Below are positions 759 to 45,376 of a stretch of DNA of 45,376 nucleotides, one piece after another. The notes beneath the pieces were generated by a model, which was not told where the DNA came from, did not search any database, and worked only from the letters and a program-made list of their open reading frames with translations. Location of the stretch: IMG/VR virus record IMGVR_UViG_3300029714_000015. One strand, given 5' to 3'. Positions within the stretch are counted from its first letter, which is position 1. Every line of letters begins with the position of its first letter. Position numbers and translations under genes: made by a program. This DNA is from a virus.

Positions 759-1186
759 ATAGTATTAGGATCATCGATAAATAAATAAAATTCCTCGGCT
801 GCCAGTTGTTTTAATGTCTCTATATGTTCGATTAATTCGGCATTGCTTAACTCGCTAATCTCCCTTAACCGTGCTTCATATTTCCCGGCATCATTTACCC
901 ATTCTTCCAACATTATAGGAGAATATTCTCGCAATCTTTGTTCTGTCTGTTTTTCTGTTAATCGTTCTCCATTATCCAAAAATGCAGACTTAAACATTGG
1001 CACGATGTAATTATAGTAATATCCGCGTAACGCTGCCGATGTTCCGGGATTGCTAACTATAAAACGTGCTATAACCTTTTTGCCGGCGTGCATTGCAAAG
1101 AATTGTTTTAATTCTCCCATATACATAGATAACGCCCCGTTGTTGTTAATAACTCCGGTTGCGCATATTTCTTTCTTTTTCATCAA
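755..1186 (-). CDS. Hypothetical protein
   Basis: 143-aa ORF in series with its neighbours, with a 4-nt overlap to the downstream gene. Confidence 0.5.
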   Translation of the reverse strand: MMKKKEICATGVINNNGALSMYMGELKQFFAMHAGKKVIARFIVSNPGTSAALRGYYYNYIVPMFKSAFLDNGERLTEKQTEQRLREYSPIMLEEWVNDAGKYEARLREISELSNAELIEHIETLKQLAAEEFYLFIDDPNTI

Positions 1187-2195: not shown

Positions 2196-2205
2196 TTTAT
2201 CACTT

Positions 2206-11730: not shown

Positions 11731-12122
11731 GGCTCTGTTGTTGCATCTCTATAAACTAATTGAGACATGCCCGCCGTTGTTGTAAGAGTTAAATTATATT
11801 CTCCGCTATCTATAACTGTTTTACCGTTTACTTCTGTTTCATTTATCTCCAAATGCCCGAATGTAATAACAAAGCCACTTATATACACTTTGGGCACGTT
11901 GTGCAACGGATCTTTATTTAAATCGGAAATAAAATTGTCTATCTCCGTTTGAGGGTTAGTAACTTTTTTTACTTGTTCTTCGTTATCCTCGACAGAAATA
12001 ACAAATACTTCCTCATTTGAAGTGATTAAATCTTCCAACAATGGTACGATGCTTAATCCTACTTGTGTACCTTGACTTTCTACGTATTTCTTTAAATACT
12101 CTCGTTGTTCTGTCTTTGTCAT
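11727..12122 (-). CDS. Hypothetical protein
   Basis: 131-aa ORF coupled to the amidase with a 4-nt overlap. Confidence 0.4.
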   Translation of the reverse strand: MTKTEQREYLKKYVESQGTQVGLSIVPLLEDLITSNEEVFVISVEDNEEQVKKVTNPQTEIDNFISDLNKDPLHNVPKVYISGFVITFGHLEINETEVNGKTVIDSGEYNLTLTTTAGMSQLVYRDATTEP

Positions 12123-12691
12123 TTTAATATATTTTTGATTGTTAAATAATGAATATTCGCTATTTTCCTACGCCCTACTTCGCTCATTATAAAACGGCAA
12201 TCCTTTTCGGTGTCCATAAAGAAATTTTCGGACAAAACGGCGGGCATTTTAGTATTGCGTAATATATAGAAATTGCTCTCTTTGTCTGGGTCGCCGTCCG
12301 TCATATCCTTTCTTATCTTCCAACCGTTAAATTCTTTCTCCGCAAAGCTATACAACATTGTGGCTATTTCATCGGCTTTCGTTTGGCCGGGCGTTGTATA
12401 ACATTCCCAGCCAGTACCGCCGCCGGCATTTGCATGTATGCTAAATAAAACACATTCGCCGACACTATCACATATATTATTTGCTCTAATACATCGTTCT
12501 TGTAGCGTTATATCTTCCAATTCTGGTACTAAAACATGATATTTTATATTGTCAGCATCTAACATTACAGAAATGCGTTTAACAATATCCCTGTTAAACT
12601 CGTATTCAAATAATTGCGAACCGTCGCACCAAATTGGCGAACGTTTCCCCGGTGTTTCTTTACCGTGCCCGTTGTCAAGTATTATTATCAT
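12119..12691 (-). CDS. N-acetylmuramoyl-L-alanine amidase (Amidase_3-type endolysin)
   Basis: LDNGHGKETPG and FSIHANAGGG motifs, characteristic of Amidase_3. Confidence 0.75.
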   Translation of the reverse strand: MIIILDNGHGKETPGKRSPIWCDGSQLFEYEFNRDIVKRISVMLDADNIKYHVLVPELEDITLQERCIRANNICDSVGECVLFSIHANAGGGTGWECYTTPGQTKADEIATMLYSFAEKEFNGWKIRKDMTDGDPDKESNFYILRNTKMPAVLSENFFMDTEKDCRFIMSEVGRRKIANIHYLTIKNILK

Positions 12692-13223
12692 TTTCTTTTT
12701 CTTCCTCCTTGTTTTTATCGGTAAATTCTTCGTTTATCTCCTCGCCGTGTTCCCGTTCGACACGCTCGACGATGCGCTGCACGTTTTCGGGCAATGCGCG
12801 TTTGAACTCGAAGCGTATCACGTGGTAGATGATGCGCAGGGCCTTGTTTGTGGGGTAGGCATGTATGAGGTTGCGGAAGGCGTTCTGCGCGTAGACGTAC
12901 ATGAAGACGTAGGTCAATGATTTCATCACGATGAGCGAGGCGGTGTCGTCGCCGCAATTCTGCATGATCGAATAGATGGTTTCCGAGATGATCAGGTATA
13001 GCAGCAGTTCGGCCAGCGCGTTCTTGAACTTCCGGAAGGAGAAGTTTCGGCACCGGACGACGGATACTCCATCGGCCCGCATGCCTGCCCATACGTTGAA
13101 GGCGAACATGGTGACGAGTGCGAAGATGAATCCTTTCGTCGGGGTGAGGAATGCCAGCACGGGGCTGAGGGCCGACACGGCAATGATGCGCCATTGTTCC
13201 CAGTTGAATATTTTGTCCATCAT
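12675..13223 (-). CDS. Holin-like membrane protein. A chimera: the body is GC-rich and the last ~15 codons are AT-rich.
   Basis: Three hydrophobic helices and a charged K/E-rich C-terminus. Immediately upstream of the amidase. The composition changes at about 12720. Confidence 0.45.
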   Translation of the reverse strand: MMDKIFNWEQWRIIAVSALSPVLAFLTPTKGFIFALVTMFAFNVWAGMRADGVSVVRCRNFSFRKFKNALAELLLYLIISETIYSIMQNCGDDTASLIVMKSLTYVFMYVYAQNAFRNLIHAYPTNKALRIIYHVIRFEFKRALPENVQRIVERVEREHGEEINEEFTDKNKEEEKENDNNT

Positions 13224-13442
13224 TGTTTACTGTGTTTATCGTTGTGTAAAGTTGTTATTCCGAGCGAGGGCGTAAGCCCGACGAGGAATCCCATGTTCAC
13301 CCTCTCTTTCCCCTTATGTCATTCCGAGCGTATGAGAGGAATTTTCGAGCAAACAAGAGCAAAAGAAAAACAGGTTTTCATTTTGCCGAGTGCCGCAGAA
13401 AATCAGCTCCGCTGAATCTCACACCGTGAGAGTGCTTGGGTT

Positions 13443-13988
13443 TCATACGAAGTCGTACCAATGAATGGTATCGGCATCGCATTTGAGGTTCAGCGAGTGG
13501 CGGTAACGATCCCGACGGTATTTCCACAGCCACAGGCGTGGAATCACACAGCCGGTGCCGCCATGCAGGTTTTTCTCTTTCAACCGCTCCGGACCGTGCG
13601 GGTTGTAGGTGGTGTTCCAGTCGCGTTTGTCGCTGACGTATAGGCAGTGCGGGTGTTCCCGGGTAAGGAACATGCCTTTGAGCCGGTCGAGGTCATCGGC
13701 AGCAGACTTCCGTCCGCCCATGACGTTTTCAAGGACGAGGCGGTAGCAGCACCCTGCGTTTTCGAGGAGGGCGACAATCTCAGGAACACAGGCCTTGTAC
13801 CCGACCCACCCGTGGCAGGCCACGAGGCCGCCCTTGCCGTCGAAACGCACGCGGAGGTCAAATGCCCGTGCCCCGCCATCTATCTGTCCCTCGACGGTCG
13901 TCCGCTGGCAGCGGGCGAAAGGTTGTAAGAACCGCATGTACCACCGACGGACGGGGTACGCGGTAAATGTGTTATGCGAGCCGTACAT
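13443..13988 (-). CDS. SHN-motif protein, GC-rich paralog B. Possible PLC-like phosphodiesterase.
   Basis: 181 aa, the same length as 2206..2751 and about 45% identical to it. About 60% GC against a backbone of about 33%. Confidence 0.35.
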   Translation of the reverse strand: MYGSHNTFTAYPVRRWYMRFLQPFARCQRTTVEGQIDGGARAFDLRVRFDGKGGLVACHGWVGYKACVPEIVALLENAGCCYRLVLENVMGGRKSAADDLDRLKGMFLTREHPHCLYVSDKRDWNTTYNPHGPERLKEKNLHGGTGCVIPRLWLWKYRRDRYRHSLNLKCDADTIHWYDFV

Positions 13989-13992
13989 ATTT

Positions 13993-15219
13993 TTATATTT
14001 TCATATCGATGGTGGCACATGCCGCCGTGCCGGAAGTGTCGATGGTTATCCGGAGTATGTTCAGATAATTCGACCCTCCGTGCAAAGCGTTCTGGTAAAG
14101 AAAAAACAACCCGTCGTTTCCCCCTGAGGTCCTGAAATGGGAAAGCAGTTTGGCCCTGATACTCTGTGAGCCGGCAGACGTGTCAAGGTCGAAAGAAATC
14201 TGAATATCGGGAATATGATAGCCACTATTAGCGGGGAAATAAGAGCTAAATAAGGCCTTCATGGCTGGGAAAACAGAGCTTCCGCTGCTGAAAGTAACAG
14301 AGGTAGAAGAGGAACCCGAAGAACCCACCGTCATTTTTCCCAAATAGAAATAATAACAACCCGACCGGTTCCACTCTTCCCACGAGGACGGCGTGAATCC
14401 CAACGTGGAGTCTTCGACCGACGTGCGGCTGTAAAGTGTCCCGTTTTTGCCGACAAACATCTGTGTGTACCGGTATTTGTATTCCCCTTCGTCGTTCTCG
14501 AACCTGAAATGGCTTTGTATGACAACGCCGTTTTCCGGGTAATTAGGAACGTTGCCGTCCGCCTGATTCCCGTTCAACCATATATAGATAGTCCCCAACT
14601 CTGCTTGGGGGTACTCGTCGATGTTGATGGCATCGTCGCTGTTGGCAAAAGAGATGCCGGCAGCGTTATCCGCCGTGCCTGCCAGCGTACCGGTAACCGT
14701 CCCGAAACAAATGTTGCCGACATAGGTACTTTCCTTATAAACCGTAGGAATGGCCGATACAATCGAAACGATATAACCGGTTATGGAGCTGCTGCCGGTC
14801 GTACCGCCCTCGCCCATGAACACGAACGCCGGGTAATCATTTCCCGCATTACTCTCAAAATAGGCATCGAATGTATCATTACCCGTCCGTACCAGCTTCA
14901 CTCGGTTGTACATTTGCGCGTTGGTAGAAAACAGGCAATAAGGGTTCATACCTTTTTCCGTATTCGTGTCGTAAATCCAGTTCACCATATACTCTGCATA
15001 ACCCATGAGAGGCGATTCGATGCCGAATCGTATGATTCCTTTTTCAGGACCTCGCTTCAAAGTCAGGAATTTATAATAACGCCCATGTGCCGAGGTCCGC
15101 GAGTATCGGAGCCGTGTTTTTGTTATGGGAGTGCTTGTTTTGGAATCTACGACGGCATCTAATATCGTTGCCGGGTAAATCGTTGCCCCGTTCTCTTTCA
15201 GTTTCTTTATCCTTGCCAT
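13993..15219 (-). CDS. Tail fibre / receptor-binding protein candidate on the GC-rich mosaic module
   Basis: 408 aa, Gly/Ser/Thr-rich and beta-rich in composition. It follows the repeat-containing fibre gene and sits on the GC-rich island. Confidence 0.45.
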   Translation of the reverse strand: MARIKKLKENGATIYPATILDAVVDSKTSTPITKTRLRYSRTSAHGRYYKFLTLKRGPEKGIIRFGIESPLMGYAEYMVNWIYDTNTEKGMNPYCLFSTNAQMYNRVKLVRTGNDTFDAYFESNAGNDYPAFVFMGEGGTTGSSSITGYIVSIVSAIPTVYKESTYVGNICFGTVTGTLAGTADNAAGISFANSDDAINIDEYPQAELGTIYIWLNGNQADGNVPNYPENGVVIQSHFRFENDEGEYKYRYTQMFVGKNGTLYSRTSVEDSTLGFTPSSWEEWNRSGCYYFYLGKMTVGSSGSSSTSVTFSSGSSVFPAMKALFSSYFPANSGYHIPDIQISFDLDTSAGSQSIRAKLLSHFRTSGGNDGLFFLYQNALHGGSNYLNILRITIDTSGTAACATIDMKI

Positions 15220-15264
15220 GTTTCAAGTATTGAAGGCAGACGGAAACCCCGCCTGCCGAGTTTC

Positions 15265-16869
15265 TCAAATCGTTATCTCCGTATAATCCGTTACGTCCGT
15301 TACTGCCGCCGCCGTCAAGTAAGTGGTATTTATCTGAGCACCCGCGCCGTCTCTTAATGCCGAGTTTGCCAAATTTGCTTGCATGGCAAACGCTGAATTG
15401 TTTACTGTTACACTGCCGTCGGCTGCTACTGCTATATCGCCTCCGCCTTTTATTATGCCCGCCACTGTTGAAGTCGCAATCTTTGGCAACTCTGTTTTCT
15501 TGGCGTAAGTGTCTACTATTTTATTGCCAGCATTGTCGTATGTCGCATTTTGCGCGTAAGTTGCAGTTGTTGCCTCATCTGCCGTACTTGCACTTCCTGC
15601 AACATCTGCATACGTAATTATAACACTGCCGTCGCTGCTAACCGATATATTTGCGCCGGCTTTTATACCACCGATTTTACTTGTTGTAGCGACCGGAACG
15701 TTTGTTACGTTCGTGGCGTTATCTGCGGTCGTTGCGTGTACTGCTTCTTCTGCCGATGCTGCATTGTTTACGGTTACTACACCGGAAGAAGAAACAAGCA
15801 CGTCGCCACCGGACTTAATGCCACCTATTTTTGAAGAAGTCGCCGCCGGAATATTATCTACTGTTGTTGCCGAGTTAACAGTTACTGTACCGTCGGACGC
15901 AACAGTTATATCATTCCCGGACTTAACAAGACCGGCGGCCGATGAGGTTGCGATCTGTGTTTTCGGCACATAAGTATTTACTATAACCCTCCCCGAGCTA
16001 TCTTGCTGTGCCATTTGTGCAACACCGGCATTATTAACAGTAACACTGCCGTCCGATGCTACGGTAATATTGCCGCCACTCTTTATACCGCCCAAAATCG
16101 AAGCCGTTGCCACTGGAAGTGTATATTTATTTGCCCCTACTTCGATGCCGTCCAATTTTGTTTTATCCTCTTTACTCATTAAGCCGTCTTGAAGCGTTGA
16201 AACATTAGGCAAAAATATTAATTGCCTTGCTTGGTTTTGAATCGATAAGTCTTTATAATTGACGACAACCCTATATCTATTTCTGTTTATACCGTCAAAT
16301 ATAAACTCTACACTATCGCCGGCCTCTGTTTTCCTTACAGAAACGGGCGATAAAAATTCGTTTACTTCCGATGATCCATTAACAGAGTTATAGGCAAAAA
16401 TAAACGCCGTTTTATTTATAAAATCGTCTATAATTGCCTCGAAATCGGTTGTTATGACATCATCTATACTTATCTTAGCAATTGTATCATTGCTAAACTC
16501 AACGCGCAAAAAGAATACCGGTAAATATTCGACGTTCCAAATATCTTTAAGGTGGGCAATTTGATTGTCAATTGATATTTTAGACCAACTTCCATTATAC
16601 ACCAATGCGGCCAACTCATTATCATTAACTTGTAGACCGCCGAAATTTGCATAAGTGCCTTTAACACTGGCTAAATAAAAAACATTTGAATCGCCAACTA
16701 TTGGATTAGTTGTTGTTGTTGCACCGCCCTTAAATAAATACCCACCGTCTTGTAACAATGATACCATTTGTAGCAAGGTATCTTGCATTATTTGACCGGT
16801 TATTTCTTGGTTGTTGTTTGGTTTTATATCCGATATTATCTTATTTCGGATATTAGAATAATTTGCCAT
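15265..16869 (-). CDS. Tail fibre protein with five internal repeats of about 27 aa (IGGIKSGG.I.V.SDGSVTVNNA)
   Basis: Repeats seen in the translation between about aa 250 and 505, which maps to DNA at about 15357..16122. Confidence 0.5.
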   Translation of the reverse strand: MANYSNIRNKIISDIKPNNNQEITGQIMQDTLLQMVSLLQDGGYLFKGGATTTTNPIVGDSNVFYLASVKGTYANFGGLQVNDNELAALVYNGSWSKISIDNQIAHLKDIWNVEYLPVFFLRVEFSNDTIAKISIDDVITTDFEAIIDDFINKTAFIFAYNSVNGSSEVNEFLSPVSVRKTEAGDSVEFIFDGINRNRYRVVVNYKDLSIQNQARQLIFLPNVSTLQDGLMSKEDKTKLDGIEVGANKYTLPVATASILGGIKSGGNITVASDGSVTVNNAGVAQMAQQDSSGRVIVNTYVPKTQIATSSAAGLVKSGNDITVASDGTVTVNSATTVDNIPAATSSKIGGIKSGGDVLVSSSGVVTVNNAASAEEAVHATTADNATNVTNVPVATTSKIGGIKAGANISVSSDGSVIITYADVAGSASTADEATTATYAQNATYDNAGNKIVDTYAKKTELPKIATSTVAGIIKGGGDIAVAADGSVTVNNSAFAMQANLANSALRDGAGAQINTTYLTAAAVTDVTDYTEITI

Positions 16870-35448: not shown

Positions 35449-36300
35449 TTATATTTCTATGCCCGTAATATCTTCAAATATATCCGCATCGAAGTTAGGC
35501 AACGTTTTAAACAATTCCTTTTGATCATCTGTAAGCTCCGACCAAAGATTAGCCCACGCTTCTTTATAAGTATAAACACGCAAATAGCCGTAATTAACAT
35601 AAGCATCTGGATTATTTTCTTTTTCTTCGTCGGACATATCGTCCCAATCGATCCAGTCAGTTAAAACAAATAAATCCTGAACAATACGATATACCTTATG
35701 TCTGTACCAATCCTCCCAAGTAAAAGAAGATTCTTTATTAAAGAAAAATATTTTATCGCCTCTTTTTCTATTGCAAAAAACGCCGCTGTTTCGGTAGCCG
35801 CTGTTTAGGTCGCCGCTGTTTCGGTCGCCGCTGTTTCGGTCGCCGCTGTTTAGGTCGCCGCTGTTTCGGTAGCCGCTGTTTAGGTCGCCGCTGTTTCGGT
35901 AGCCGCTGTTTAGGTCGCCGCTGTTTCGGTCGCCGCTGTTTCGGTAGCCGCTGTTTCGGTCGCCGCTGTTTCGGTAGCCGCTGTTTCGGTCGCCGCTGTT
36001 TCGGTCGCCGCTGTTTCGGTAGCCGCTGTTTCGGTCGCCGCTGTTTCGGTAGCCGCTGTTTAGGTCGCCGCTGTTTCGGTCGCCGCTGTTAAAAAGACCT
36101 GTATTTTCTCTCCCTGTAAAAAACAATTCCGGGCGTTCACATTCTCTTATCCAATCGGCATTAATAGGATAAAAATCTTCTCTGTCTTTTATCACATTGG
36201 CAAGTTCTTCATAGGTTGCCACATTGCGTACCTCATCGCCAAATTCTTTGTTCCATTCATAAGCCCCAATAATTTGGTCTTTTAATTCTTCTAAGTTCAT
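35449..36300 (-). CDS. Protein with about 21 tandem pentapeptide units NSGDR/NSGYR/NSGDL
   Basis: Encoded by the 15-bp tandem array at 35771..36090. Acidic/aromatic flanks. Confidence 0.5.
   Translation of the reverse strand: MNLEELKDQIIGAYEWNKEFGDEVRNVATYEELANVIKDREDFYPINADWIRECERPELFFTGRENTGLFNSGDRNSGDLNSGYRNSGDRNSGYRNSGDRNSGDRNSGYRNSGDRNSGYRNSGDRNSGDLNSGYRNSGDLNSGYRNSGDLNSGDRNSGDRNSGDLNSGYRNSGVFCNRKRGDKIFFFNKESSFTWEDWYRHKVYRIVQDLFVLTDWIDWDDMSDEEKENNPDAYVNYGYLRVYTYKEAWANLWSELTDDQKELFKTLPNFDADIFEDITGIEI
35771..36090. repeat. About 21 copies of a 15-bp tandem repeat (CGCCGCTGTTTCGGT / AGCCGCTGTTTAGGT variants)
   Basis: Seen directly. Three unit variants are interspersed. Confidence 0.9.
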
Positions 36301-36318: not shown

Positions 36319-37119
36319 TTAATAACTGGCCGTTTTTTGTTTCGTATTTGCTACAAAGGTTTTGTTAGATCCTTTGAGATTAATTTCTCCCAAATTTTCA
36401 AAATCCCCGTTTGCCCATACTTTGGTGATGCAAGAACCTTTGTATTTGTCGTCAATTTCATGCCCGCACCAATGTATTGCGACGGATTTCGCTTCAAGGA
36501 ATCGATGAAAGGTCATTGAAAGATGTTTCTTGACCCGATCGAATGCTTCCGAGAACTTTCGTTTGGCATTCTCGTTCTCGGCTTTTGTCGCGGCCGGGAT
36601 AATCCGGTCCGGATCCGTCCAAATAACTATAGTACCGGAAGCAAGATTATCCAGTTCATGCTCGAAGCCTCCCGGAAGCCAATGAACCAGTTCCCAACGG
36701 TCGCATCGAGCAACATGATCCAGACTCCATGTCCAGAATTCGGGAGATTGTCCCTGAATTTTACTCATAACGGTCAGTGTCCGACATTGAGAGAAGGATG
36801 CGGTTTTCAGACCGAGACCAAAACGTCCCAGATCCGTCGCCGATCGTTCTTCCAGAGGATTCTGCGCCCCGGGGCGCATGGCTTGGATTATCTCTTCACC
36901 GGACATGCCGTGTCCATCGTCCTTGATTGTTATGACGGATTCTCCTCCCTTCCAGATTCGATTGATCCATACATTTTTGGCCAATGCAGATATTGAGTTA
37001 TCAACGATATCTGCAACAGCCGTTTCCAAACTGTAGCCGATGGCTCGAAACGTTTCAATCATTGCTGCTGCTCTTGGAATGGCTGAAGCTGTTTTTATAT
37101 ATGTGAAATTATCATACAT
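36319..37119 (-). CDS. GHKL (HATPase_c) ATPase fragment. It looks like a truncated partner of the methyltransferase. The GC-rich N-terminal ~200 codons are fused to an AT-rich tail of ~65 codons.
   Basis: Bergerat-fold motifs: N-box ADIVDNSISA, G1 DDGHGM, G2 GRFGLGLKTAS. Composition changes at about 36520. Confidence 0.55.
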   Translation of the reverse strand: MYDNFTYIKTASAIPRAAAMIETFRAIGYSLETAVADIVDNSISALAKNVWINRIWKGGESVITIKDDGHGMSGEEIIQAMRPGAQNPLEERSATDLGRFGLGLKTASFSQCRTLTVMSKIQGQSPEFWTWSLDHVARCDRWELVHWLPGGFEHELDNLASGTIVIWTDPDRIIPAATKAENENAKRKFSEAFDRVKKHLSMTFHRFLEAKSVAIHWCGHEIDDKYKGSCITKVWANGDFENLGEINLKGSNKTFVANTKQKTASY

Positions 37120-38420
37120 ATCTGGTTATTTATAACATCTTTTTAATAGCTTCAGCAATCTTCTGAGCTAATACGACTGGTACGGCATTGCCAATCTGTT
37201 TAAAGGCGGATGTACGGCTACCTTCAAAGTAATAATCATCAGGAAATGACTGAAGACGCGCCGCCTCTCGAACCGTAATGGAGCGTACCGTTTCCAATGT
37301 CGGATTTAATGTCGGATAAATATAGTAATGTCCGTCCATGGCAATGTGTGCAACTACCGTGTGACTGCATCCGTAAGGATCGACGACATTGAAACGGTTG
37401 AGAAAGATCTCCTTGTTTCGATGAGTCTGCAATTCGACCGGCAGTTGTGCATAGTTCAACCGATGGTGTTCATTCAACCACTTTTCGACGGCTATCTTGT
37501 ATATTTTACGATCGTTTTCGTTGGTCGGTCTGGCTACATGTTGAGTTGTAAAATCCAACTCGCCGCGTATCCCGGACTGATTGAGATATGGCATCTCGGA
37601 CAGATGTTTGACATACGATACGGTTTCGCAAAATTTTCCTTCTCCCGCTTTTCGTGCTGGCAAATCCGAGAACAGATCCCTTAGAACTTGATATGGACAC
37701 TCCTCCACTGGTAGTTCCGGGTAATGGTATGGGCTTTTCAAGCCTTTTACAGCGCGCTTCCAGCCTACGATAATAACTCTCTGCCTATTTTGCAATACCC
37801 CGTGTTGGGATGCAATCTGAACTTTGCAGTCCATATCATAGCCGAGCTTGTCAACCAGTCGTTTGAGATCAGCAAAGGGTTCTCCCCGTTTGGCAGTCAA
37901 TAGACCCAATACGTTTTCAAATACGAACATCTCAGGGTCATAGTGCTCGATAAATTGTACGTAGTATTTGTACAGTTCGTTTCGAGGATCCTTCTCGACC
38001 TCTTTGCCCATACGCGCTCTGCCTGCGACGGAATAGGCCTGACAGGGAGGACCTCCGATGATGATATCCACCTTGCGTTTGCCTTTGAGTTCATCCACGT
38101 TCTTGAAAATATCATCAATCGTATTTTCTCCTATTGTCGCGCAAATCGTGGTATTGATTACGCTTTTCGGAACCTGACTCCAAAGTTTTCGCCCGTCTGT
38201 CCCTTCTTCCTTATGCTTGAGATAATCTTCATAGATTGGAAGCATCCCATTTTTCTGAAGATAATGAAATGCCGATCGTGTTTTCAGCGTGTTACAGGCG
38301 TCCTTGTTCATCTCGATATACGCAATTGGCGTATACCCGGCTCTGATGAAGCCTTCAGAAAGTCCTCCTGCTCCGGCAAACAAATCTATGAATGTATATG
38401 TTTTTTTCATCAACTGTTGT
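36520..38420. other. GC-richer island carrying the C5-methyltransferase and the GHKL ATPase fragment
   Basis: Composition change at about 36520, inside the GHKL ORF, and at about 38415. Confidence 0.65.
37130..38413 (-). CDS. DNA (cytosine-5)-methyltransferase
   Basis: Motif I FIDLFAGAGG, IV GGPPCQAYS, VI FENVLGL, VIII QNRQRV, X GNAVPV. About 45-50% GC, so foreign to the backbone. Confidence 0.9.
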   Translation of the reverse strand: MMKKTYTFIDLFAGAGGLSEGFIRAGYTPIAYIEMNKDACNTLKTRSAFHYLQKNGMLPIYEDYLKHKEEGTDGRKLWSQVPKSVINTTICATIGENTIDDIFKNVDELKGKRKVDIIIGGPPCQAYSVAGRARMGKEVEKDPRNELYKYYVQFIEHYDPEMFVFENVLGLLTAKRGEPFADLKRLVDKLGYDMDCKVQIASQHGVLQNRQRVIIVGWKRAVKGLKSPYHYPELPVEECPYQVLRDLFSDLPARKAGEGKFCETVSYVKHLSEMPYLNQSGIRGELDFTTQHVARPTNENDRKIYKIAVEKWLNEHHRLNYAQLPVELQTHRNKEIFLNRFNVVDPYGCSHTVVAHIAMDGHYYIYPTLNPTLETVRSITVREAARLQSFPDDYYFEGSRTSAFKQIGNAVPVVLAQKIAEAIKKML

Positions 38421-38936: not shown

Positions 38937-39428
38937 TTTTATGTATTCCCACCCCTTTTTATCAATTATTAAATTACGCGGATATTCCATTATTTCACCC
39001 TTTGTGTACACCAAATTATAAATGCCTAATTGCCCTTTTATGGGCACTTCTACTACCTTGCGCGGATTCCGCAATAACCAGCCATACCCATTTGTAATAT
39101 TAGGCCGCTTATCTCTCGGAATACGTGTTTTATCCCAGTCGTCGATAGTAAAATCTTTTATCGGCTTGACATCATATAATTCGACTAATCCTAATGTTAC
39201 ACCGCTTTCCATACCCGGTATTACCGGTTTTGAAGAAGAACAAATAAGTATATCACCACGATAAGAAGTATTTCTACTTCTTACTTCTATCGACTTAACA
39301 CCATATACAAGACCCTCACAATCCATATATGCGGGCGTTACTATATCGTTTGCGTATGGCTGTTTTACTGTTAATGCTCGCCAACGATCATGTTTTACCG
39401 GATCGTAGCAACTATTTTTAAACTGCAT
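38901..39428 (-). CDS. ASCH-domain protein (start at MQFKNS, after the hexamer repeat)
   Basis: LTVKQPYANDIV....KSIEVRS resembles the ASCH beta-barrel N-terminus. The upstream ITITIT.. translation is the hexanucleotide repeat read in frame. Confidence 0.5.
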   Translation of the reverse strand: MQFKNSCYDPVKHDRWRALTVKQPYANDIVTPAYMDCEGLVYGVKSIEVRSRNTSYRGDILICSSSKPVIPGMESGVTLGLVELYDVKPIKDFTIDDWDKTRIPRDKRPNITNGYGWLLRNPRKVVEVPIKGQLGIYNLVYTKGEIMEYPRNLIIDKKGWEYIKTQIKTENKKNS

Positions 39429-39624
39429 CGTTATCGTTATCGTTATCGTTATCGTTATCGTTATCGTTATCGTTATCGTTATCCATAGGCGGAGCAAAAC
39501 CTATTTTTTGCCTCACTTCTTTTGTCTCGAAAACGACAATAACGGTATCTTTTTCTGTACGAACACCGATTAATTCGCTGTCCTCGGGTATTATCATAGT
39601 AATTTCAAATTTCTTTCTCATCAA
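39418..39624 (-). CDS. Small protein ending in a (DN)9 tail encoded by the hexamer repeat
   Basis: 68-aa ORF coupled to the SSB gene by a 4-nt overlap. Confidence 0.3.
   Translation of the reverse strand: MMRKKFEITMIIPEDSELIGVRTEKDTVIVVFETKEVRQKIGFAPPMDNDNDNDNDNDNDNDNDNDAV
39429..39484. repeat. (GTTATC) hexanucleotide microsatellite, about 9.3 units. On the minus strand it is GATAAC.
   Basis: Seen directly. It lies at the junction of the 68-aa ORF and the ASCH gene. Confidence 0.9.
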
Positions 39625-40913: not shown

Positions 40914-41590
40914 TCGCTGTATTCTTCGTCGTTCTCGTTATTTAACAACCCGTTATCGGCTTCCGGTGTTGGTTCTCCGTTAGGATCAAATAATTCTAAT
41001 TGTGCTTTTTTCCCTTTAAACAAGAAAAGGTAAGTTTCTTGTTCTATTTCCGATATAATGTTTTCTAATTCTTCTTCAAATCCGAAACTATCGGCGTTAA
41101 ATTTTATCCTCGGCGAATTAATAGCCGTTTTATAATTATTAGCAACCGTAAACAAACCGGTAATTACAACCCCGACATTATCATCTTTCCCGGACAAAGA
41201 AACGCCCCTTATTTCTATATTTTGTAATGCTTCTTCGGCAAAATCCCGGGCGATATTTTTTTGCTCCTTAGTTGCCTTAAAATCGGGCGTTTCTATCATT
41301 GACAAAAAAGATGTTATATTAAAGATTCGCCCCATTATTGGCACTAATTGTGTAAAACACCGCGCCAAATCCGGGTGTATATCTTTGGCACTCTCTACGT
41401 GATACTTATTGTTATAAGAACTCATACCAACGACTTCTACAACTTCGTAATGAACATCTAAACCACCCTCTTTTAACAACTTTACTTTGGTTAGACTAAA
41501 TGATTTTTCCGACGGGATAATCATTACATTCTTTTCTTCACTCATAATTCTTTTTTTTAAGTATTCGACAAAAATAAAATTTAAATCCAA
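40910..41590 (-). CDS. Hypothetical protein
   Basis: 226 aa with an acidic C-terminus. Directly downstream of the ParB-like gene. Confidence 0.45.
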   Translation of the reverse strand: MDLNFIFVEYLKKRIMSEEKNVMIIPSEKSFSLTKVKLLKEGGLDVHYEVVEVVGMSSYNNKYHVESAKDIHPDLARCFTQLVPIMGRIFNITSFLSMIETPDFKATKEQKNIARDFAEEALQNIEIRGVSLSGKDDNVGVVITGLFTVANNYKTAINSPRIKFNADSFGFEEELENIISEIEQETYLFLFKGKKAQLELFDPNGEPTPEADNGLLNNENDEEYSE

Positions 41591-42177
41591 CTTTTGGAAA
41601 ATTCCTCATCTTTAAATGCCTCGGCAAGTCCAGTTATTTGTTTTAATCTTAAAACTTCGTCCGCGTCCATGCCTAATTCTATACCAATTCTCGCATTTGT
41701 CCAATTATGCTTTTTAAGCATTGTAATTAACTTTGCAGATAATTCTACTTGATGCGTACCCCGGGCAAGATTATGCCTTACCGTAGAAGTTATACGATCT
41801 TCTATCGATTTATTTAACCGACTTACCGGAATATATCCATACAAACTATTATTTATATCCTTATCTTGTTGTATTACTGTCGTTCTATGGAAACCGTCTA
41901 CTACTGTGTAAGGATAATCTTTATTATCGGGCGTATCACAAACTACAATCGGCATTGTTACACCGTCCTTTTTAATGGATAGTTTTAACAGCTTCATTTC
42001 CGGCGGTGCAACCTTATTCGGATTATAATCATTTCCTATGACTTTATTTGCAGGTACTAATTGAACATTTAGTACTGGGTGATTTATACCCAACCAATCA
42101 TATAGTTCCTGTGTAATCGTATTAAATACTTTTACCTTATCTTCAAAAGGCATATCTTTTAAAACATTTTCAATCAT
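41581..42177 (-). CDS. ParB/Sulfiredoxin-like nuclease domain protein (IbrB-like)
   Basis: VVDGFHRTTV (ParB box-II-like GxxR). 198 aa. 4-nt overlap with the IbrA-like gene. Confidence 0.65.
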   Translation of the reverse strand: MIENVLKDMPFEDKVKVFNTITQELYDWLGINHPVLNVQLVPANKVIGNDYNPNKVAPPEMKLLKLSIKKDGVTMPIVVCDTPDNKDYPYTVVDGFHRTTVIQQDKDINNSLYGYIPVSRLNKSIEDRITSTVRHNLARGTHQVELSAKLITMLKKHNWTNARIGIELGMDADEVLRLKQITGLAEAFKDEEFSKSWI

Positions 42178-43379
42178 AATTCTTTCCCGTATCTTGTTAT
42201 CATTTCTATTTGTTTCTCTAACTCTTTTTTTGTTTGGGAAAAAGATAACCCCTTACACCAATAATCATTCTTTAAAAGAACCTTACAAATTCTACGCCAA
42301 GAGGGTATTTTCTTTGTTGATTCCTGTTTCATATCGGCAAAATCCGGTATTTGTGCTATTCCCTCTTTTTCCCACCAAGAAAGAAATTTCTTAATCTTTA
42401 TGCTATAATGTTCTGCAAGATATGGCGGCATAGTACTTAATAAAAATTTTGCATAAGATTCGTATGTATGCCCCTCGGGTAAATTAACTTTATAATTACC
42501 GAGTGTCGTTTTATCATTTTCGGTATATCTATTTCCAAAATTAGCCCCCTCTACTCTATTGACAACTTTTGCCCATGTTTCCGGCTCTAATATTTTAAAC
42601 AAATATAACCCTTGTCTTTGGTCATCTCCATACGGTTGGCAAAGTCGCATTTTACTAAGCGGCACACCCGCCATATTCATTATATCATATATTTTATTAT
42701 AATCATATTTCATTTTCCCATTACAAGCCCAAATATCCCTTACTTTCCAATCATATAAGGGGTAAAAATTATATATTTCTTTATCGGTATTCGGGAACAA
42801 TTTTGTTGTAAACATATACTCTTTATAAGGTACTTTATGTTCATTTTTTATTGTCCTAAACCTGTTTAAACTTTCGTCGGCTCTAATACCTACAAGGCAA
42901 GCCGTGTTTTTCCCCTCGCTGAACCATTCAGCAAACGCGGGTACAAATTCTTCAAATTCCATACCCCGATAAAAGAACGGGAAAAACTTCTCATCTGTTA
43001 TAACATTTTTATTTTTCGGATATTCTCTAACCCATGCCGAACGTTTTTCTTTATCCCAGCAAAGCCAATAAGGGCAATATTGTGATACAGCATTACGCAA
43101 ATGAATAGGTAAACAAACCCAATACCCTACTACCTCATCACGATTAAACATTCTTTCCGTGTAGTCTATCGCATGCTTATATTGTGCCTCCATGTCTATA
43201 TATAAGACATGTACGGGTAATTTCCCCAATTCTCGCGCGACATCTATTGCCAAATTAAGCATAACGCCGCTATCTTTACCATTAGAAAAAGAAATATATA
43301 CTTTTTCAAAATCGGTAAACGCTATTTTTATGCGTTCTTTGGCCGCTTCAAATACATTTTTATCTTGATATACTTTCAT
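42174..43379 (-). CDS. PAPS-reductase / PP-loop protein with a C-terminal extension (IbrA / DUF3440-like)
   Basis: PP-loop ISFSNGKDSG. 401 aa. Overlaps by 4 nt on both sides. Confidence 0.7.
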   Translation of the reverse strand: MKVYQDKNVFEAAKERIKIAFTDFEKVYISFSNGKDSGVMLNLAIDVARELGKLPVHVLYIDMEAQYKHAIDYTERMFNRDEVVGYWVCLPIHLRNAVSQYCPYWLCWDKEKRSAWVREYPKNKNVITDEKFFPFFYRGMEFEEFVPAFAEWFSEGKNTACLVGIRADESLNRFRTIKNEHKVPYKEYMFTTKLFPNTDKEIYNFYPLYDWKVRDIWACNGKMKYDYNKIYDIMNMAGVPLSKMRLCQPYGDDQRQGLYLFKILEPETWAKVVNRVEGANFGNRYTENDKTTLGNYKVNLPEGHTYESYAKFLLSTMPPYLAEHYSIKIKKFLSWWEKEGIAQIPDFADMKQESTKKIPSWRRICKVLLKNDYWCKGLSFSQTKKELEKQIEMITRYGKEL

Positions 43380-44578
43380 AGATCCTTTTCCATTTGTTTA
43401 ATTGATACAGTTTTAAAGTAATCTATCAATGATATTTTTCTATTTATATTTTGATCGATTAATGTTTCTAATCCCACATCTCCGGTAAGATTAAAATAAA
43501 AACAATTCTCTTTCTGTCCCATTCTAAATGTACGTCGCTTTGCTTGCTCAATTAGCCCAAAATCAAATATTTTATCAAAGAATATTGTATAACAATAATC
43601 TTGTAAATTTAATCCGAATGCGTCCCTTTGATAAGATAAAACCACACATTCGGGGTACATTTTTTTACACTCAATCTGACTTAAAATATATTTACAAAAG
43701 ATAATTGTTTTACTTTTTTCAATACGGCGGAACAATTTATTTAATGCCTCAAATTTCCCGCCTGTTATGCAGTAAGAATGTTGCATCTTTGTTACCATTT
43801 CCATATAAATAGAATCATTTCTACTAAAAAGAAAATCGATCGATAAATATTTTGATTTTAAATCATAATACTTTTGTTTACTCTCATCGTCTATATTATA
43901 ATACACATCTTTAAATACTTGCGACACATTCAAATTCAAATCACATTGAAAGACATAATTTTTTATCAACGAAAAAAGATAATCTATATTATCATAGCCT
44001 TTTATATACTCTCTTATCATTTTCCCGTTTTTATAAACTTGAATATAATCGCAAAATATGTTTTTATATTGGCTGTAAGACATGTTTAATATTAACGGCG
44101 ATAAAAATAACATTTGCGGATATAAATCTAATAAATTCTTTGTTATTGGCGTTCCGTTCAAAATCAACTTATTTTTAACCAATTTCCCCAACTCTATAAT
44201 CCTTTTTGTCCTCTTCGCCTGTATATTTTTTATTTTTAAACTCTCATCTACAATTAAGAAAACATCTTTAAACGTGTTTATAAAATCTATTGCCTCTAAA
44301 TATATGCGATTTGAAGATTGCAAACTTTCTGTACCAATATATTTTACCGGGCAATTAAAACCGCCCCATTTATTAACCTCATCTATAACCGTTGTTATGT
44401 CTTTTGACAACGGTTTTATTGTGCGTAATGGAGCTATGTATAAAACAGCTTTTATATTACTTGTTTCATTCACTATATTTACCGCGACATGCGTTTTACC
44501 CGTTCCCGCTTCCATAAACAACGCACCTACACGCCAATCACGTAAATGCCTTTTTGCTTCTAATTGATTATCATTCAT
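43376..44578 (-). CDS. Compact SNF2-family ATPase/helicase
   Basis: Walker A EAGTGKTH, motif II LIVDESL, motif III LNGTPITKNLLDLY, motif VI QAKRRTFRMGQ. Confidence 0.65.
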   Translation of the reverse strand: MNDNQLEAKRHLRDWRVGALFMEAGTGKTHVAVNIVNETSNIKAVLYIAPLRTIKPLSKDITTVIDEVNKWGGFNCPVKYIGTESLQSSNRIYLEAIDFINTFKDVFLIVDESLKIKNIQAKRTKRIIELGKLVKNKLILNGTPITKNLLDLYPQMLFLSPLILNMSYSQYKNIFCDYIQVYKNGKMIREYIKGYDNIDYLFSLIKNYVFQCDLNLNVSQVFKDVYYNIDDESKQKYYDLKSKYLSIDFLFSRNDSIYMEMVTKMQHSYCITGGKFEALNKLFRRIEKSKTIIFCKYILSQIECKKMYPECVVLSYQRDAFGLNLQDYCYTIFFDKIFDFGLIEQAKRRTFRMGQKENCFYFNLTGDVGLETLIDQNINRKISLIDYFKTVSIKQMEKDL

Positions 44579-44891
44579 TTCTTAATTCGGGTATATAGTT
44601 ATTAACCACTGAATATTTTTGCGGAACATGGTGTTTTATCTCCACAAAAGGGTATTTATTCCCTCTTTCATCAAAGAAACATTTCTTTTTATCCGAATAT
44701 TGGATATTCTTTTTTTCTAAAATCCACGCGGCAACCCAATAAGAAAGCCCCTTTGTTTCTGTATCTATACCATAGATTTGTGATGCGGGAAATACATCTA
44801 CCATGCCATTAAAAGAGAATATTTTATAAGCCTTATCGGTTATTTTTTCTATCCTCTTTATTTTTACCGAATAACACAATACTTTCCCCAT
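44571..44891 (-). CDS. Hypothetical protein
   Basis: 106-aa ORF. Confidence 0.45.
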   Translation of the reverse strand: MGKVLCYSVKIKRIEKITDKAYKIFSFNGMVDVFPASQIYGIDTETKGLSYWVAAWILEKKNIQYSDKKKCFFDERGNKYPFVEIKHHVPQKYSVVNNYIPELRNE

Positions 44892-44932
44892 AAACTCTTT
44901 AATTGGATAAAAGAAGGGTAATTACCCTTCTT

Positions 44933-45271
44933 TCATTTACCTATTATAAACATTTCACTTTCTTGTTTGCTTGTAAATGGTATTTGATGCGTTTTAGATT
45001 TAAAATCCACTTTCGACAATTCAAATTGCTTATCTGTAAAGAACCTCACTTCATAAGCCGCCGATAAATTATTTTGTTGAATATTTTTTACATAATCTAT
45101 CGCGCGCTCGCTTGTCATAAAATGTTCAAATACTTTGCTTGTATCAATGCAATTTCTTTGTGTATAACCGCTTCTAATGACTTTTAAATCTTTTTTCGGT
45201 ATCTCTTTCCCGTTTACGCTTTTAAATTCAACCCATGTGATTTTGTACGCTGAAATTTCATTTGTATTCAT
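44933..45271 (-). CDS. Hypothetical protein. First gene after cassette copy A/E.
   Basis: 112-aa ORF whose ATG is the terminal cat of the cassette. Confidence 0.45.
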   Translation of the reverse strand: MNTNEISAYKITWVEFKSVNGKEIPKKDLKVIRSGYTQRNCIDTSKVFEHFMTSERAIDYVKNIQQNNLSAAYEVRFFTDKQFELSKVDFKSKTHQIPFTSKQESEMFIIGK

Positions 45272-45376
45272 AACTCTTTTCTTTTTTATTCCCGGGAAAC
45301 CGCCCGGTCGATCATCTTTGATATTGCAAATATAAGCACTTTGTTTTAATTACCAAAACTTTTAACCATTTTTTGT
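45269..45376 (-). promoter_or_regulatory. Conserved promoter/leader cassette, copy E. 108/108 identical to 1..108, consistent with circular closure.
   Basis: Direct comparison, including the distinguishing aaccatttttt variant found only in these two copies. Confidence 0.6.

Follow-up and report, generated by a model that had tools for sequence, protein, structure and literature searches.

An SNF2-associated IbrA/IbrB cassette in a human gut phage as a candidate DNA-directed adenylylation module

Described systems with similar components

The closest described relatives of the locus are IbrA/IbrB of E. coli, from the ECOR-9 island and prophages, and their paralogues YbdN/YbdM in strain K-12. 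They have the same core, a PAPS_reduct plus DUF3440 protein beside a ParB-like protein of ~200 aa; PMC9068703 lists YbdN as a PAPS reductase/DUF3440 protein and YbdM as a protein with a ParB-like nuclease domain. The PHROG families of E. coli IbrA and IbrB are identical to those of the phage studied here, whereas the E. coli pairs examined have neither the SNF2 gene nor the small gene u106 found beside the phage pair. Activation of eib is their sole known phenotype. The finding that ibrAB enhances prophage eib gene expression (Sandt et al. 2002, as cited in PMC7649339) is genetic, is the only experimental datum for the family, and underlies the standard annotation "co-activator of prophage gene expression". 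In line with the first-pass annotation, the literature searched contained no experimental or biochemical function for IbrA/IbrB pairs, and no DNA modification was reported there for any phage that carries them.

DndC–DndB and SspD–SspE also comprise a PP-loop ATP pyrophosphatase and a ParB/Srx protein with a DGxHR-type motif, and both proteins act on DNA. DndC–DndB is a precedent for a ParB-like partner of a DNA-modifying enzyme, and DndC requires a three-Cys 4Fe-4S cluster and a Cys dyad (PMC10853773). In contrast, IbrA has neither, and contains DUF3440 instead. In DpdA–DpdB, as described in PMC12839542, the base-modifying enzyme needs its ParB-like NTPase partner. The Dpd system includes an SNF2-type helicase, and DpdE is the best PADLOC match of the phage SNF2 protein (1.2e-09, partial). 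However, the Dpd enzyme is a tRNA-guanine-transglycosylase homologue whereas IbrA is a PP-loop protein, and DpdE, a restriction component of Dpd, is about 1,000 aa long, while the phage SNF2 protein has 400 aa. Queuosine-pathway genes are absent from this phage. The phage thymine dioxygenase 5mYOX, which modifies DNA post-replicatively, needs a small ParB-like protein specifically for double-stranded DNA (PMC13229309), and by analogy offers the best experimental parallel to the proposed role of IbrB. Unlike IbrA, 5mYOX is an Fe(II)/2-oxoglutarate dioxygenase. Its ParB has a dimerisation domain and no obvious DNA-binding domain, and IbrB is the reverse, with a helix-turn-helix and no C-terminal domain.

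The ATP-using proteins CysD, Fad1, and DndC have the GKDS-type PP-loop that IbrA also has. CysD–CysN ATP sulfurylase and FMN adenylyltransferase (the PAPS domain of FAD synthase) use a phosphate or sulfate oxygen as the acceptor of AMP. Their substrates are small molecules, however, and they lack DUF3440 and a DNA-binding partner; NCBIfam CysD models score far under their cut-offs on IbrA. The requirement of CysD for a partner NTPase suggests, by analogy, that IbrA may be coupled to IbrB.

Composition of the cassette

The window (IMG/VR record IMGVR_UViG_3300029714_000015, the whole stretch of 45,376 nucleotides analysed) is a complete circular phage genome from the human gut. It is read as a circular assembly because it has an exact 108-bp terminal direct repeat. 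The host is probably a member of the Bacteroidales. Three ORFs on the minus strand encode an SNF2-family ATPase (43376-44578), IbrA (42174-43379), and IbrB (41581-42177), and at both junctions the stop and the next start share 4 nt (ATGA). A fourth minus-strand gene, u106 (44571-44891), belongs to the same unit, and its stop and the SNF2 start share 8 nt (ATGAATGA).

The first gene, u106, encodes a 106-aa protein. It matches phrog_5809 (9.9e-24) and gave no match in a Pfam search. It is kept upstream of SNF2 in 25 viral or phage loci, including those of Flavobacterium phages FCL-2 (gp06) and 2A (gp31), and in 5 genome loci, and was never found in IbrAB loci without SNF2. A perfect 24-bp palindrome, AAAGAAGGGTAATTACCCTTCTTT (44910-44933), lies between a 112-aa ORF and u106. 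It is possibly a hairpin/terminator or an operator at the upstream cassette boundary, but its role is uncertain because only the near-identical contig L002 shares it; other relatives have no palindrome, or unrelated GC-rich hairpins, at this site.

The SNF2 protein is a compact ATPase. Its family assignment and motifs, as first annotated, are borne out by matches to Pfam SNF2-rel_dom (39.7 bits, 4.2e-10; gathering cut-off 24.9) and phrog_62 (4.6e-61), and by the invariance of K28 (GTGKT), D111-E112 (DESLK), G142-T143 (NGTP), Q345, and R349 in 10 diverse homologues. SsoRad54 (1z63, 1.3e-14) is the closest PDB sequence match. The protein is predicted to be an active enzyme, and its lobe 2 is shortened.

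IbrA contains an N-terminal PP-loop domain and a C-terminal DUF3440. Its placement in the PAPS-reductase family with a C-terminal extension agrees with matches to PAPS_reduct (2.6e-12), DUF3440 (5.8e-39), and phrog_2302 (2.5e-93, full length), and the proposed membership of the pair in the IbrA/IbrB family agrees with 43% full-length identity to the annotated IbrA of Escherichia phage PhiR5_2. The PP-loop S32-x-G-K-D-S37 and the family core motifs are invariant. The N-terminal domain has an ATP pyrophosphatase/adenylyltransferase fold of the PAPS-reductase/CysD/FAD-synthase branch, with FMN adenylyltransferase, APS/PAPS reductase, and CysD as the nearest folds. The DUF3440 part is modelled with moderate confidence, and comparison with known folds gave no match.

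Genes with a Pfam PAPS_reduct match are routinely called sulfur auxiliary metabolic genes (e.g. PMC10434257, PMC12323421, PMC11318856), and the usual database and literature annotation would make IbrA a true PAPS reductase that increases sulfur assimilation in the host. This is hardly credible, since NCBIfam scores on IbrA are 17.4 bits for CysH (cut-off 154) and 33 bits for CysD (cut-off 195), no catalytic cysteine is conserved, and IbrA is an obligate partner of a DNA-binding ParB-like protein and often accompanies an SNF2 motor as well.

The IbrA family as a whole has no conserved cysteine position. Streptococcus, Mycobacterium, Clostridium, and Pseudomonas phages have various substitutions at the six cysteine positions, and FCL-2 and 2A, with the same u106-SNF2 cassette, have none of the six cysteines. 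It is consequently very improbable that the cassette thiolates phage DNA, by Dnd/Ssp-like phosphorothioation or otherwise. Such chemistry would be in keeping with the PP-loop and ParB/Srx DGxHR pairing of DndC–DndB and SspD–SspE (PMC10853773), with a weak PADLOC match to DndC (5e-05), and with the retention of C107, C247, and C375 in 92-95% of sequences of the window's IbrA subclade. However, the DndC matches are partial and only ~20-bit, and desulfurase, DndA/D/E, and SspA/B/C genes were not found in the phage genome. Fusions of IbrA to an amidotransferase, rhodanese, desulfurase, or sulfur carrier were not found among the best 150 of 2,574 cluster-representative matches. The Dnd/Ssp domain logic invoked in the first-pass annotation thus holds at the superfamily level and not in cysteines, partner genes, or match strength. 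Sulfur chemistry for the cassette is disfavoured, given the lack of a family-wide cysteine and of Dnd/Ssp partners.

IbrB matches phrog_2159 (1.2e-62), and ParB_N weakly (18.9 bits, below the cut-off of 26.3). Its motif is D94-G95-F96-H97-R98, with D94, G95, H97, and R98 invariant, and this DGFHR contrasts with GERR in ParB. The structure model consists of a ParB/Srx NTP-binding domain and a KorB/ParB-type helix-turn-helix, and lacks a C-terminal dimerisation domain. The ParB/Srx fold and DGFHR motif reported earlier are retained, while the label "nuclease" has no specific support in this model of an NTP-binding domain with a helix-turn-helix.

The best fold match of IbrB is the transcriptional repressor KorB, DNA-binding domain included. 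This is consistent with a gene-expression module, in which IbrB, as a KorB/ParB-like switch that binds DNA, and its co-activator IbrA would turn on phage or prophage genes or lift their silencing, and SNF2 would be a RapA-type remodeller clearing nucleoid proteins or recycling RNA polymerase. The increase of Eib expression by ibrAB (Sandt 2002, cited in PMC7649339) suits a regulatory role at least as well as DNA modification, the cassette of FCL-2 is within a late operon, and HTH regulators adjoin the cassette in several phages. Such a module is nevertheless somewhat unlikely, as a pure transcription factor needs no strictly conserved PP-loop active site, the palindrome scan found no conserved operator-like palindrome near the cassette, and the E. 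coli activation could stem indirectly from DNA modification.

Linkage, distribution, and genome setting

IbrA and IbrB are adjacent in 84 of 87 viral and phage loci and 77 of 80 genome loci (~96% of 167). SNF2 is present in 41 of the 87 and 12 of the 80, so that it is a real and recurrent companion of IbrAB, yet an optional one and not the translocase these systems were said usually to need. About half of the IbrAB loci lack it; many of these have an unrelated ~130-aa protein instead. Many IbrAB loci have no detectable third partner, and protein P0257 is IbrB fused to the third component X.

The SNF2 clade of the window occurs almost only directly upstream of IbrA, in at least four phyla and in differing genome contexts. 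This arrangement is found in phages of Bacteroidota, Lactobacillales (Streptococcus, Lactobacillus), Listeria, and Clostridia (Clostridium), and in genome contigs labelled Pseudomonadota, Desulfovibrionaceae, and Opitutales. The annotated-phage SNF2 matches listed (E ≤ 3e-26, coverage ≥ 96%) all come from IbrAB-bearing groups, and SNF2 is always directly upstream of IbrA among the matches listed with both coordinates. FCL-2 and 2A have the order u106-SNF2-IbrB-IbrA, with IbrA and IbrB swapped and the adjacency of all genes kept. Distance matrices from 45 loci correlate at 0.84 for IbrA–IbrB, 0.71 for SNF2–IbrB, and 0.55 for SNF2–IbrA (Mantel p=0.001 each).

In FCL-2 the cassette is flanked by TerL and portal; in CHPC877 and phiCs5676-1 it separates the lysis module from the lysogeny module. 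In the 42.5-kb contig L095, an in-frame deletion joins SNF2 residues 1-96 to IbrA residues ~233-401, and both catalytic cores are gone. This natural deletion suggests an accessory role. A system for defence or inter-element competition carried by phages or prophages, directed at foreign or host DNA and not at the phage's own genome, would be in line with the position of the cassette in temperate phages (phiCs5676-1, S. thermophilus phages), where it fills the lysis-integrase/cro accessory slot that usually houses cargo of this kind, with the many IbrAB pairs in bacterial and archaeal chromosomes, and with weak matches of SNF2 to the defence helicases DpdE, DrmD, and ZorD. It is distinctly unlikely, since the cassette has no consistent link to a nuclease or other effector, PADLOC gave no system-level match and none for IbrB, and phages without integrases such as FCL-2 (PMC4541368) also have the cassette.

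In this phage the cassette is inside a replication/recombination module, flanked by a DnaQ-like exonuclease, an SbcC-like ATPase, and a RuvC-like resolvase on one side and by HNH and SSB on the other. Replication and recombination genes precede it in eight related contigs. Since the window is circular and the cassette is within this module, its earlier description as part of a first, early transcription unit is a linearisation artefact. SSB, a Rad52-like annealase, DnaB, and HTH regulators recur as neighbours elsewhere. These surroundings, and the terminase and portal that flank the FCL-2 cassette, could reflect an accessory to phage replication, recombination, or packaging, in which SNF2 would remodel forks or annealing, IbrB would bind or nick DNA, and IbrA would adenylylate DNA ends or a protein. 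This is unlikely, because the cassette moves among unrelated genome modules, including the lysis-lysogeny junction, most phages lack it, the L095 deletion loses it, and the SNF2 clade travels with IbrAB and not with any replication genes.

A joint modification pathway with a second PP-loop gene (8988-9932), proposed earlier, is unsupported, because the phage distributions of that gene and IbrA do not overlap and DUF2400 is missing from some close relatives.

Proposed function

The most likely reading, with a probability of about 0.4, is that u106-SNF2-IbrA-IbrB, an IbrA/IbrB-family cassette, is mobile, accessory, and non-essential and acts as a DNA-directed modification module by ATP-dependent adenylyl transfer. 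The cassette probably marks or processes DNA. The chemistry is suggested by the invariant PP-loop and core motifs and by a fold nearest to FMN adenylyltransferase, APS/PAPS reductase, and CysD. DNA targeting is suggested by the ParB N-domain and helix-turn-helix of the IbrB model, the intact SNF2 motifs, and the SSB, Rad52-like, DnaB, and HTH neighbours. Against the modification reading, no co-substrate domain was found fused to IbrA among the 150 best representatives, about half of the loci lack SNF2, and the DUF3440 fold is unmatched.

In the proposed mechanism, IbrB would bind DNA via its KorB/ParB-like helix-turn-helix, and its Srx/DndB-type DGxHR nucleotide pocket may be a switch or phosphotransfer site. 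In a putative complex, IbrB would recruit or activate IbrA, in parallel with DpdB and 5mYOX-ParB, the ParB-like proteins that activate DNA-modifying partners on double-stranded DNA. IbrA, with its intact SxGKDS loop, would use ATP to adenylylate a DNA oxygen (a base carbonyl, a backbone phosphate, or a terminal phosphate), leaving either a covalent mark or a position activated for substitution by a non-thiol nucleophile, and DUF3440 would hold the substrate. The SNF2 motor and u106 may translocate on duplex DNA and give processive or distorted-duplex access, and the unrelated ~130-aa protein may replace the motor in other lineages.

In phage-host conflict, the module would serve to mark or shield phage DNA, as a candidate anti-defence function, or to alter host DNA. 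The IbrA/IbrB family is already known and very widespread, its function is unsolved, and the cassette of this gut phage is one of its members.

Cassette layout and genome setting

The cassette comprises four minus-strand genes, given by the ORF calls as u106 (44571-44891; 106 aa, phrog_5809), an SNF2 ATPase (43376-44578; 400 aa), IbrA (42174-43379; 401 aa) and IbrB (41581-42177; 198 aa). The last three were described in the first-pass annotation, and their coordinates, strand and two 4-nt stop/start overlaps are exactly as given there; the SNF2/IbrA and IbrA/IbrB junctions both read ATGA. The fourth gene, u106, is added here and overlaps the SNF2 start by 8 nt (ATGAATGA). IbrB is separated from the next downstream gene by a gap of about 35 nt, with no overlap. 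A palindrome scan found a perfect 24-bp palindrome just upstream of u106 (44910-44933). It was rejected as an IbrB operator because it is not kept in relatives, and it may be a boundary hairpin. The promoter scan found 32 signals against 31.0 expected in shuffled background. Terminator-like signals number 9 against 3.2 expected, and are short and mostly located within genes or on the opposite strand. Megablast of the cassette region against 50,697 phage records found no near-identical DNA; the annotated-phage relatives of the cassette are related at the protein level only.

An exact 108-bp direct terminal repeat (window 1-108 and 45269-45376) indicates a circular assembly of ~45.3 kb for the window, whose end genes are thus neighbours. 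All long ORFs lie on one strand. Related contigs carry, in order, a replication initiator, an SbcC-like ATPase, DUF2400, a DnaQ-like exonuclease, a 112-aa gene, u106, SNF2, IbrA, IbrB, a 211-aa gene, HNH, a 115-aa gene, SSB, a variable DNA-methylase island, a pentapeptide-repeat protein and the terminase. This order places the cassette inside a replication/recombination module. The earlier proposal that the operon belongs to the first transcription unit, and is hence early, is thus an artefact of where the circle was cut. The identical IbrB protein occurs on 101 contigs, the eight longest examined being ENA metagenome contigs of 41-52 kb, one of them labelled human gut. The closest IbrA relatives in the genome collection (75%) are from Bacteroidaceae and Prevotella MAGs. 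Cassette sites in different phages are unrelated: in the window the genes lie in the replication module, Flavobacterium phage FCL-2 has them between TerL and portal, and in Streptococcus thermophilus phage CHPC877 and Clostridium phage phiCs5676-1 they separate the lysis from the lysogeny/cro module. An accessory to replication or recombination is one reading of the arrangement in the window, and it is considered unlikely.

Two related contigs bear on dispensability. L095 (42.5 kb; L095:7108-7905) has a 1.6-kb in-frame deletion with flanks 99.5% identical to relatives. It fuses SNF2 residues 1-96 to IbrA residues ~233-401, so that the PP-loop domain is lost in full, as is the DExx core of SNF2. 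In L090 (L090:6090-7603), u106 and SNF2 are separated by an insertion of a tyrosine integrase and a 194-aa gene. Provided that these contigs stem from propagating phages, the cassette would be accessory rather than essential. The replication-module gene previously called HhH-glycosylase-like (1146-2318, minus strand; 349-aa start in the gene calls of relatives) was found to be of the DUF2400 family (Pfam 1.7e-63). It is missing from the close relatives L090 and L094, which have a 58-aa ORF in its slot, and is thus a variable accessory gene.

Other loci of the window have features of their own. The minus-strand region 36319-38413 contains a C5 cytosine methyltransferase (3.1e-61), then an HATPase_c_3 (MORC/GHKL-type) ATPase (5.8e-32); close relatives (contigs L088-L095) have a different C5 methylase or an N6_N4 methyltransferase in this slot, or leave it empty. 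The locus resembles a variable methylase island, perhaps anti-restriction, between SSB and terminase. The pentapeptide-repeat protein (35449-36300, minus strand; Pentapeptide_2, 7.3e-27) includes ~20 copies of a 15-nt unit at 35782-36080 that encode NSGDR/NSGYR/NSGDL. Close relatives encode versions of 218 to 313 aa or, in some cases, none, and the protein could act as a DNA mimic. The hexanucleotide ATCGTT is repeated perfectly in tandem, 9.5 times, at 39427-39483. This repeat lies at the start of the ASCH-like gene region, encodes a (DN)n tail of a 68-aa ORF, and may be a contingency or slippage locus. GC content is 0.41-0.56 at 12001-16000, relative to a genome background of ~0.33. This stretch includes the ORFs 13993-15219 and 15265-16869, lies just upstream, in transcription, of the lysis genes, and may hold horizontally acquired tail-fibre or receptor-binding genes. 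Lesser rises occur at 27-29 kb and 36-38 kb.

The IbrA and IbrB proteins

IbrA contains PAPS_reduct (PF01507; 47.6 bits, cut-off 22.5, 2.6e-12) followed by DUF3440 (PF11922; 134.1 bits, cut-off 25, 5.8e-39), and phrog_2302 matches residues 2-397 at 2.5e-93. By tblastn it is 43.1% identical to IbrA of Escherichia phage PhiR5_2 over 100% of the query. This architecture and identity, with the adjacent co-directional ParB-like partner, confirm the proposed IbrA/IbrB-family identity; PAPS_reduct, DUF3440 and, in the neighbouring gene, SNF2-rel_dom are all above their Pfam cut-offs. An IbrA profile search of 1.84 billion representatives returned 2,574 clusters at 50% identity, of which 573 reach 1e-30; their architecture is very stable, at ~380-460 aa. 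The longer homologues among the best 150 of the 2,574 clusters have no fused co-substrate domain; beyond PAPS_reduct and DUF3440 they show just one partial ABC_tran match.

Conservation in 77 IbrA sequences, which range from 27 to 100% identity, is at least 95% for the PP-loop S32-x-G-K-D-S37 and for D62, E64, R166, E169, S170, N172, R173, R175, P207, D210 and W211. Conserved Arg and Trp residues of DUF3440 include R245, W269, R275, W361 and R363. An intact GKDS-type loop is typical of the ATP-using enzymes CysD, Fad1 and DndC, where AMP is transferred and pyrophosphate is released. No cysteine column is conserved across the IbrA family alignment. In the IbrA sample, the six positions that hold Cys in the window IbrA are 74-95% conserved. 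Phage proteins from Streptococcus, Mycobacterium, Clostridium, Pseudomonas and E. coli have other residues at various of these positions. Flavobacterium phages FCL-2 and 2A, which bear the same u106-SNF2 cassette, have no Cys at any of the six. CysH relies on a catalytic C-terminal cysteine in an ECGLH-type motif, whereas the C-terminus of IbrA is DUF3440 and has no family-wide cysteine. The defining features of DndC are a three-Cys 4Fe-4S cluster and a DndC-specific Cys dyad (PMC10853773); the IbrA family conserves neither. The lack of a family-wide cysteine indicates that DndC-type or CysH-type chemistry is not the common mechanism of the family, and cysteine-based sulfur chemistry is unlikely in this role. 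The possible chemistry of IbrA is narrowed, with ATP/adenylyl transfer retained.

Model searches give a similar picture of the Dnd-like chemistry suggested in the first-pass annotation. PADLOC DndC matches IbrA at 20.5 and 19.4 bits, over residues ~154-256 only. DndA/IscS-type desulfurase, DndD, DndE, SspA, SspB and SspC were absent from the ORFs outside the head-to-lysis region (~14-28.5 kb) and from the gene tables of eight related contigs; host IscS could act as desulfurase. With these partial matches, no Dnd/Ssp partner genes in the scanned set and no common cysteine, Dnd-like thiolation is very improbable.

The first-pass annotation also connected IbrA with a second PP-loop gene. This stand-alone protein (8988-9932, minus strand) is a true PAPS_reduct member (Pfam 1.6e-25, phrog_424), and its C162-C163...C249-x-x-C252 is spaced like the CC...CxxC of the APS-reductase 4Fe-4S site. 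Relatives occur in Clostridium perfringens, Ruminococcus, Vibrio and Enterobacter phages, and in none of the IbrAB-carrying groups. The joint pathway was rejected because the distribution of this gene in phages does not overlap with that of IbrA (Flavobacterium, Mycobacterium, Streptococcus), and the gene is thus an independent module.

IbrB is the adjacent, co-directional partner of IbrA, with ~200 aa and a ParB/Srx fold. It matches phrog_2159 at 1.2e-62 and, by phmmer, IbrB of PhiR5_2 at 1.5e-43. ParB_N is matched below the Pfam gathering score, and NCBIfam parB_part gives 18 bits against a cut-off of 58. In profile alignments with solved structures, the invariant DGFHR aligns with GERR of ParB/Noc, and NDYNPN with NPYQPR. 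IbrB is hence a DGxHR (Srx/DndB/SbnI-like) variant and not a canonical CTPase clamp. Compared to the canonical ParB clamp, IbrB lacks the box II GERR, with its catalytic Glu and arginine patch, and the C-terminal dimerisation domain, since its last residue, 198, follows immediately on the HTH helices. In common with ParB, it has a predicted central HTH DNA-binding domain. IbrB is thus modelled as a ParB/Srx nucleotide-binding domain followed by an HTH, and nothing specific favours the label of nuclease that it had been given. No ParA-like gene is present among the phage ORFs scanned or in the related-contig gene tables.

ParB-like proteins also accompany other enzymes. The phage 5mYOX thymine dioxygenase requires a ParB-like activator only on dsDNA (PMC13229309), DpdB is described in PMC12839542 as a ParB-like ATPase driving DpdA-mediated preQ0 insertion, and DndB is the partner of DndC (PMC10853773). 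These cases are precedents for ParB-like partners of DNA-modifying enzymes.

The full-text literature searched contains no biochemical or phenotypic study of phage IbrAB. In the account of Sandt et al. 2002 given in PMC7649339, the sole experimental observation is that ibrAB enhances Eib expression, and this eib activation is the only phenotype behind the IbrA/IbrB name. A regulatory or anti-silencing module would be consistent with this single genetic datum and with a KorB-like fold, and is considered rather unlikely. Other papers label IbrAB as a 'co-activator of prophage gene expression', as a sulfur AMG, or as virulence-linked (PMC4541368, PMC4490671, PMC5874904, PMC10434257, PMC12323421, PMC11318856). 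A true sulfur AMG is barely credible, as the NCBIfam phosphoadenylyl-sulfate reductase (CysH) model scores 17.4 bits against a cut-off of 154, NCBIfam CysD scores 33 bits against 195, and the catalytic cysteine is not conserved. The FCL-2 paper noted IbrAB and two ORFs upstream of them in the host genome as well (PMC4541368). PADLOC models give no match to IbrB, and a phage-borne defence or competition system is quite improbable.

SNF2 linkage and partner subtypes

The SNF2 protein has the Pfam SNF2-rel_dom above the gathering score and matches phrog_62 at 4.6e-61. Among PDB sequences it is closest to 1z63, the SNF2 core of a Sulfolobus Rad54-like protein (1.3e-14). Lobe 1 contains the motifs GTGKT (K28), DESLK (D111, E112) and NGTP (G142, T143), and motif VI is QAKRRTFRMGQ (Q345, R349). 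All seven of these residues are invariant when the protein is aligned with nine homologues (20-49% identity). Pfam Helicase_C, for lobe 2, is undetected in the protein; PDB 1z5z matches residues 310-385. The protein is unusually compact, with part of lobe 2 between motifs IV and V deleted in comparison with its Streptococcus and Clostridium orthologues.

Linkage was assessed in two sets. The viral set consists of 80 loci, kept from 334 relatives in an IMG/VR scan with IbrA, and seven annotated phage regions (87 in total), and the genome set of 80 loci from species-representative bacterial and archaeal genomes. With iterated local HMMs, IbrB adjoins IbrA in 84 of the 87 viral/phage loci, the exceptions being at contig ends, and in 77 of the 80 genome loci. 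A compact SNF2 is adjacent in 41 and 12 loci, respectively. With u, S, A and B for u106, SNF2, IbrA and IbrB, the viral orders are u-S-A-B (21), S-A-B (14), u-S-A (2) and A-B-S (2), and u-S-B-A occurs in the two Flavobacterium phages FCL-2 and 2A.

The reverse test, which starts from SNF2, is more telling than counts based on IbrA. A tblastn search of the 50,697 phage records with SNF2 gave 173 matches. The listed matches at E<=3e-26 (26-50% identity, coverage at least 96%) are all from IbrAB-carrying groups, namely Flavobacterium, Lactobacillus, Listeria, Streptococcus and Clostridium phages, and SNF2 is immediately upstream of IbrA wherever both coordinates are listed. Partial matches (1e-12 to 1e-18) occur in the Vibrio (VP5-like) and Xanthomonas/Xylella groups, which are absent from the IbrA counts. 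Weak near-full-length matches at 24-25% identity occur in Pseudomonas phage tabernarius and Thermoanaerobacterium THSA-485A. By phmmer, the window SNF2 matches the gene upstream of IbrA in CHPC877 (5.9e-56) and phiCs5676-1 (7.6e-29). The SNF2-IbrAB linkage proposed earlier is thus borne out by recurrent adjacency across phage groups and genome loci. In 45 loci, distance-matrix correlations are 0.84 for IbrA-IbrB, 0.71 for SNF2-IbrB and 0.55 for SNF2-IbrA (each Mantel p=0.001); they are supportive and not decisive, because shared phage ancestry contributes. SNF2 diverges fastest in these loci, with a mean p-distance of 0.64 compared to 0.41 and 0.40 for the other two.

In loci that lack SNF2, an unrelated protein of ~130 aa, here called X, is often found next to IbrA (27 viral and 16 genome loci); examples in related loci are L081:916-1326, L082:3604-4002 and L085:6555-6953. 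The genome-locus orders are B-x-A or x-A-B, with x for X, and in protein cluster P0257 (378 aa) X forms a C-terminal fusion with IbrB. X and SNF2 nearly exclude each other, and a single locus has both. X has no profile similarity to u106 (hhalign, probability 0.1%), and no significant match in Pfam, PHROG or PDB. The picture from these gene orders is of an obligate IbrA-IbrB core with interchangeable third partners. Subtypes can be defined by this partner: SNF2, accompanied by u106 or not; protein X; or none. Mycobacterium phage Gaia gp104 (L085:5302-6198) is an IbrB homologue with an N-terminal extension of ~120 aa, annotated in its record as an ectoine-synthase (cupin)/ParB multidomain protein. 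The extension could point to the sensing of a small molecule or to an additional enzymatic step.

Proposed mechanism and significance

The cassette may be a DNA-directed ATP/adenylyl-transfer module, with a probability of about 0.4; its substrate, chemistry, complex and biological role are all what we infer. IbrB would bind DNA and switch or recruit IbrA. IbrA would then adenylylate a DNA oxygen, and either leave the adduct as a mark or activate the position for substitution by something other than a thiol. Translocation or duplex distortion would come from the dedicated SNF2 motor together with u106. The function would be accessory, and probably one of self-marking or anti-defence. A wider proposal, possible and doubtful, is that IbrA/IbrB represent an unrecognised sulfur-independent modification of dsDNA, either an AMP adduct or an amination-type substitution as made by TilS on tRNA. 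It would comprise a DGxHR ParB-like loader or switch and, in one subtype, a compact SNF2 driver, and would range from human-gut Bacteroidales phages to Asgard-archaeal elements.

Few uncharacterised gene pairs of phages and prophages are as common as IbrA/IbrB. At least 8,000 candidates were obtained in both 90%-identity searches, and IbrA members are found in many bacterial phyla and in Asgard archaea. They are routinely mis-annotated, being assigned to sulfur metabolism or called 'co-activator of prophage gene expression'. The cassette is a further member of a named and mechanistically unsolved family. The instance itself is ordinary, and dozens of deposited phage genomes already contain this cassette without its having drawn comment. 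Its cultured carriers include Flavobacterium FCL-2, S. thermophilus CHPC877 and Clostridium phiCs5676-1, and such phages, with the natural deletion variant, make the IbrAB question directly testable. If the module modifies DNA, it would be a new enzymatic route to phage DNA modification, with a bearing on gut phage-host range and on sequencing-based modification detection. Members of the family are very widely distributed, and the constraints and test systems described here bring it within reach of experiment.
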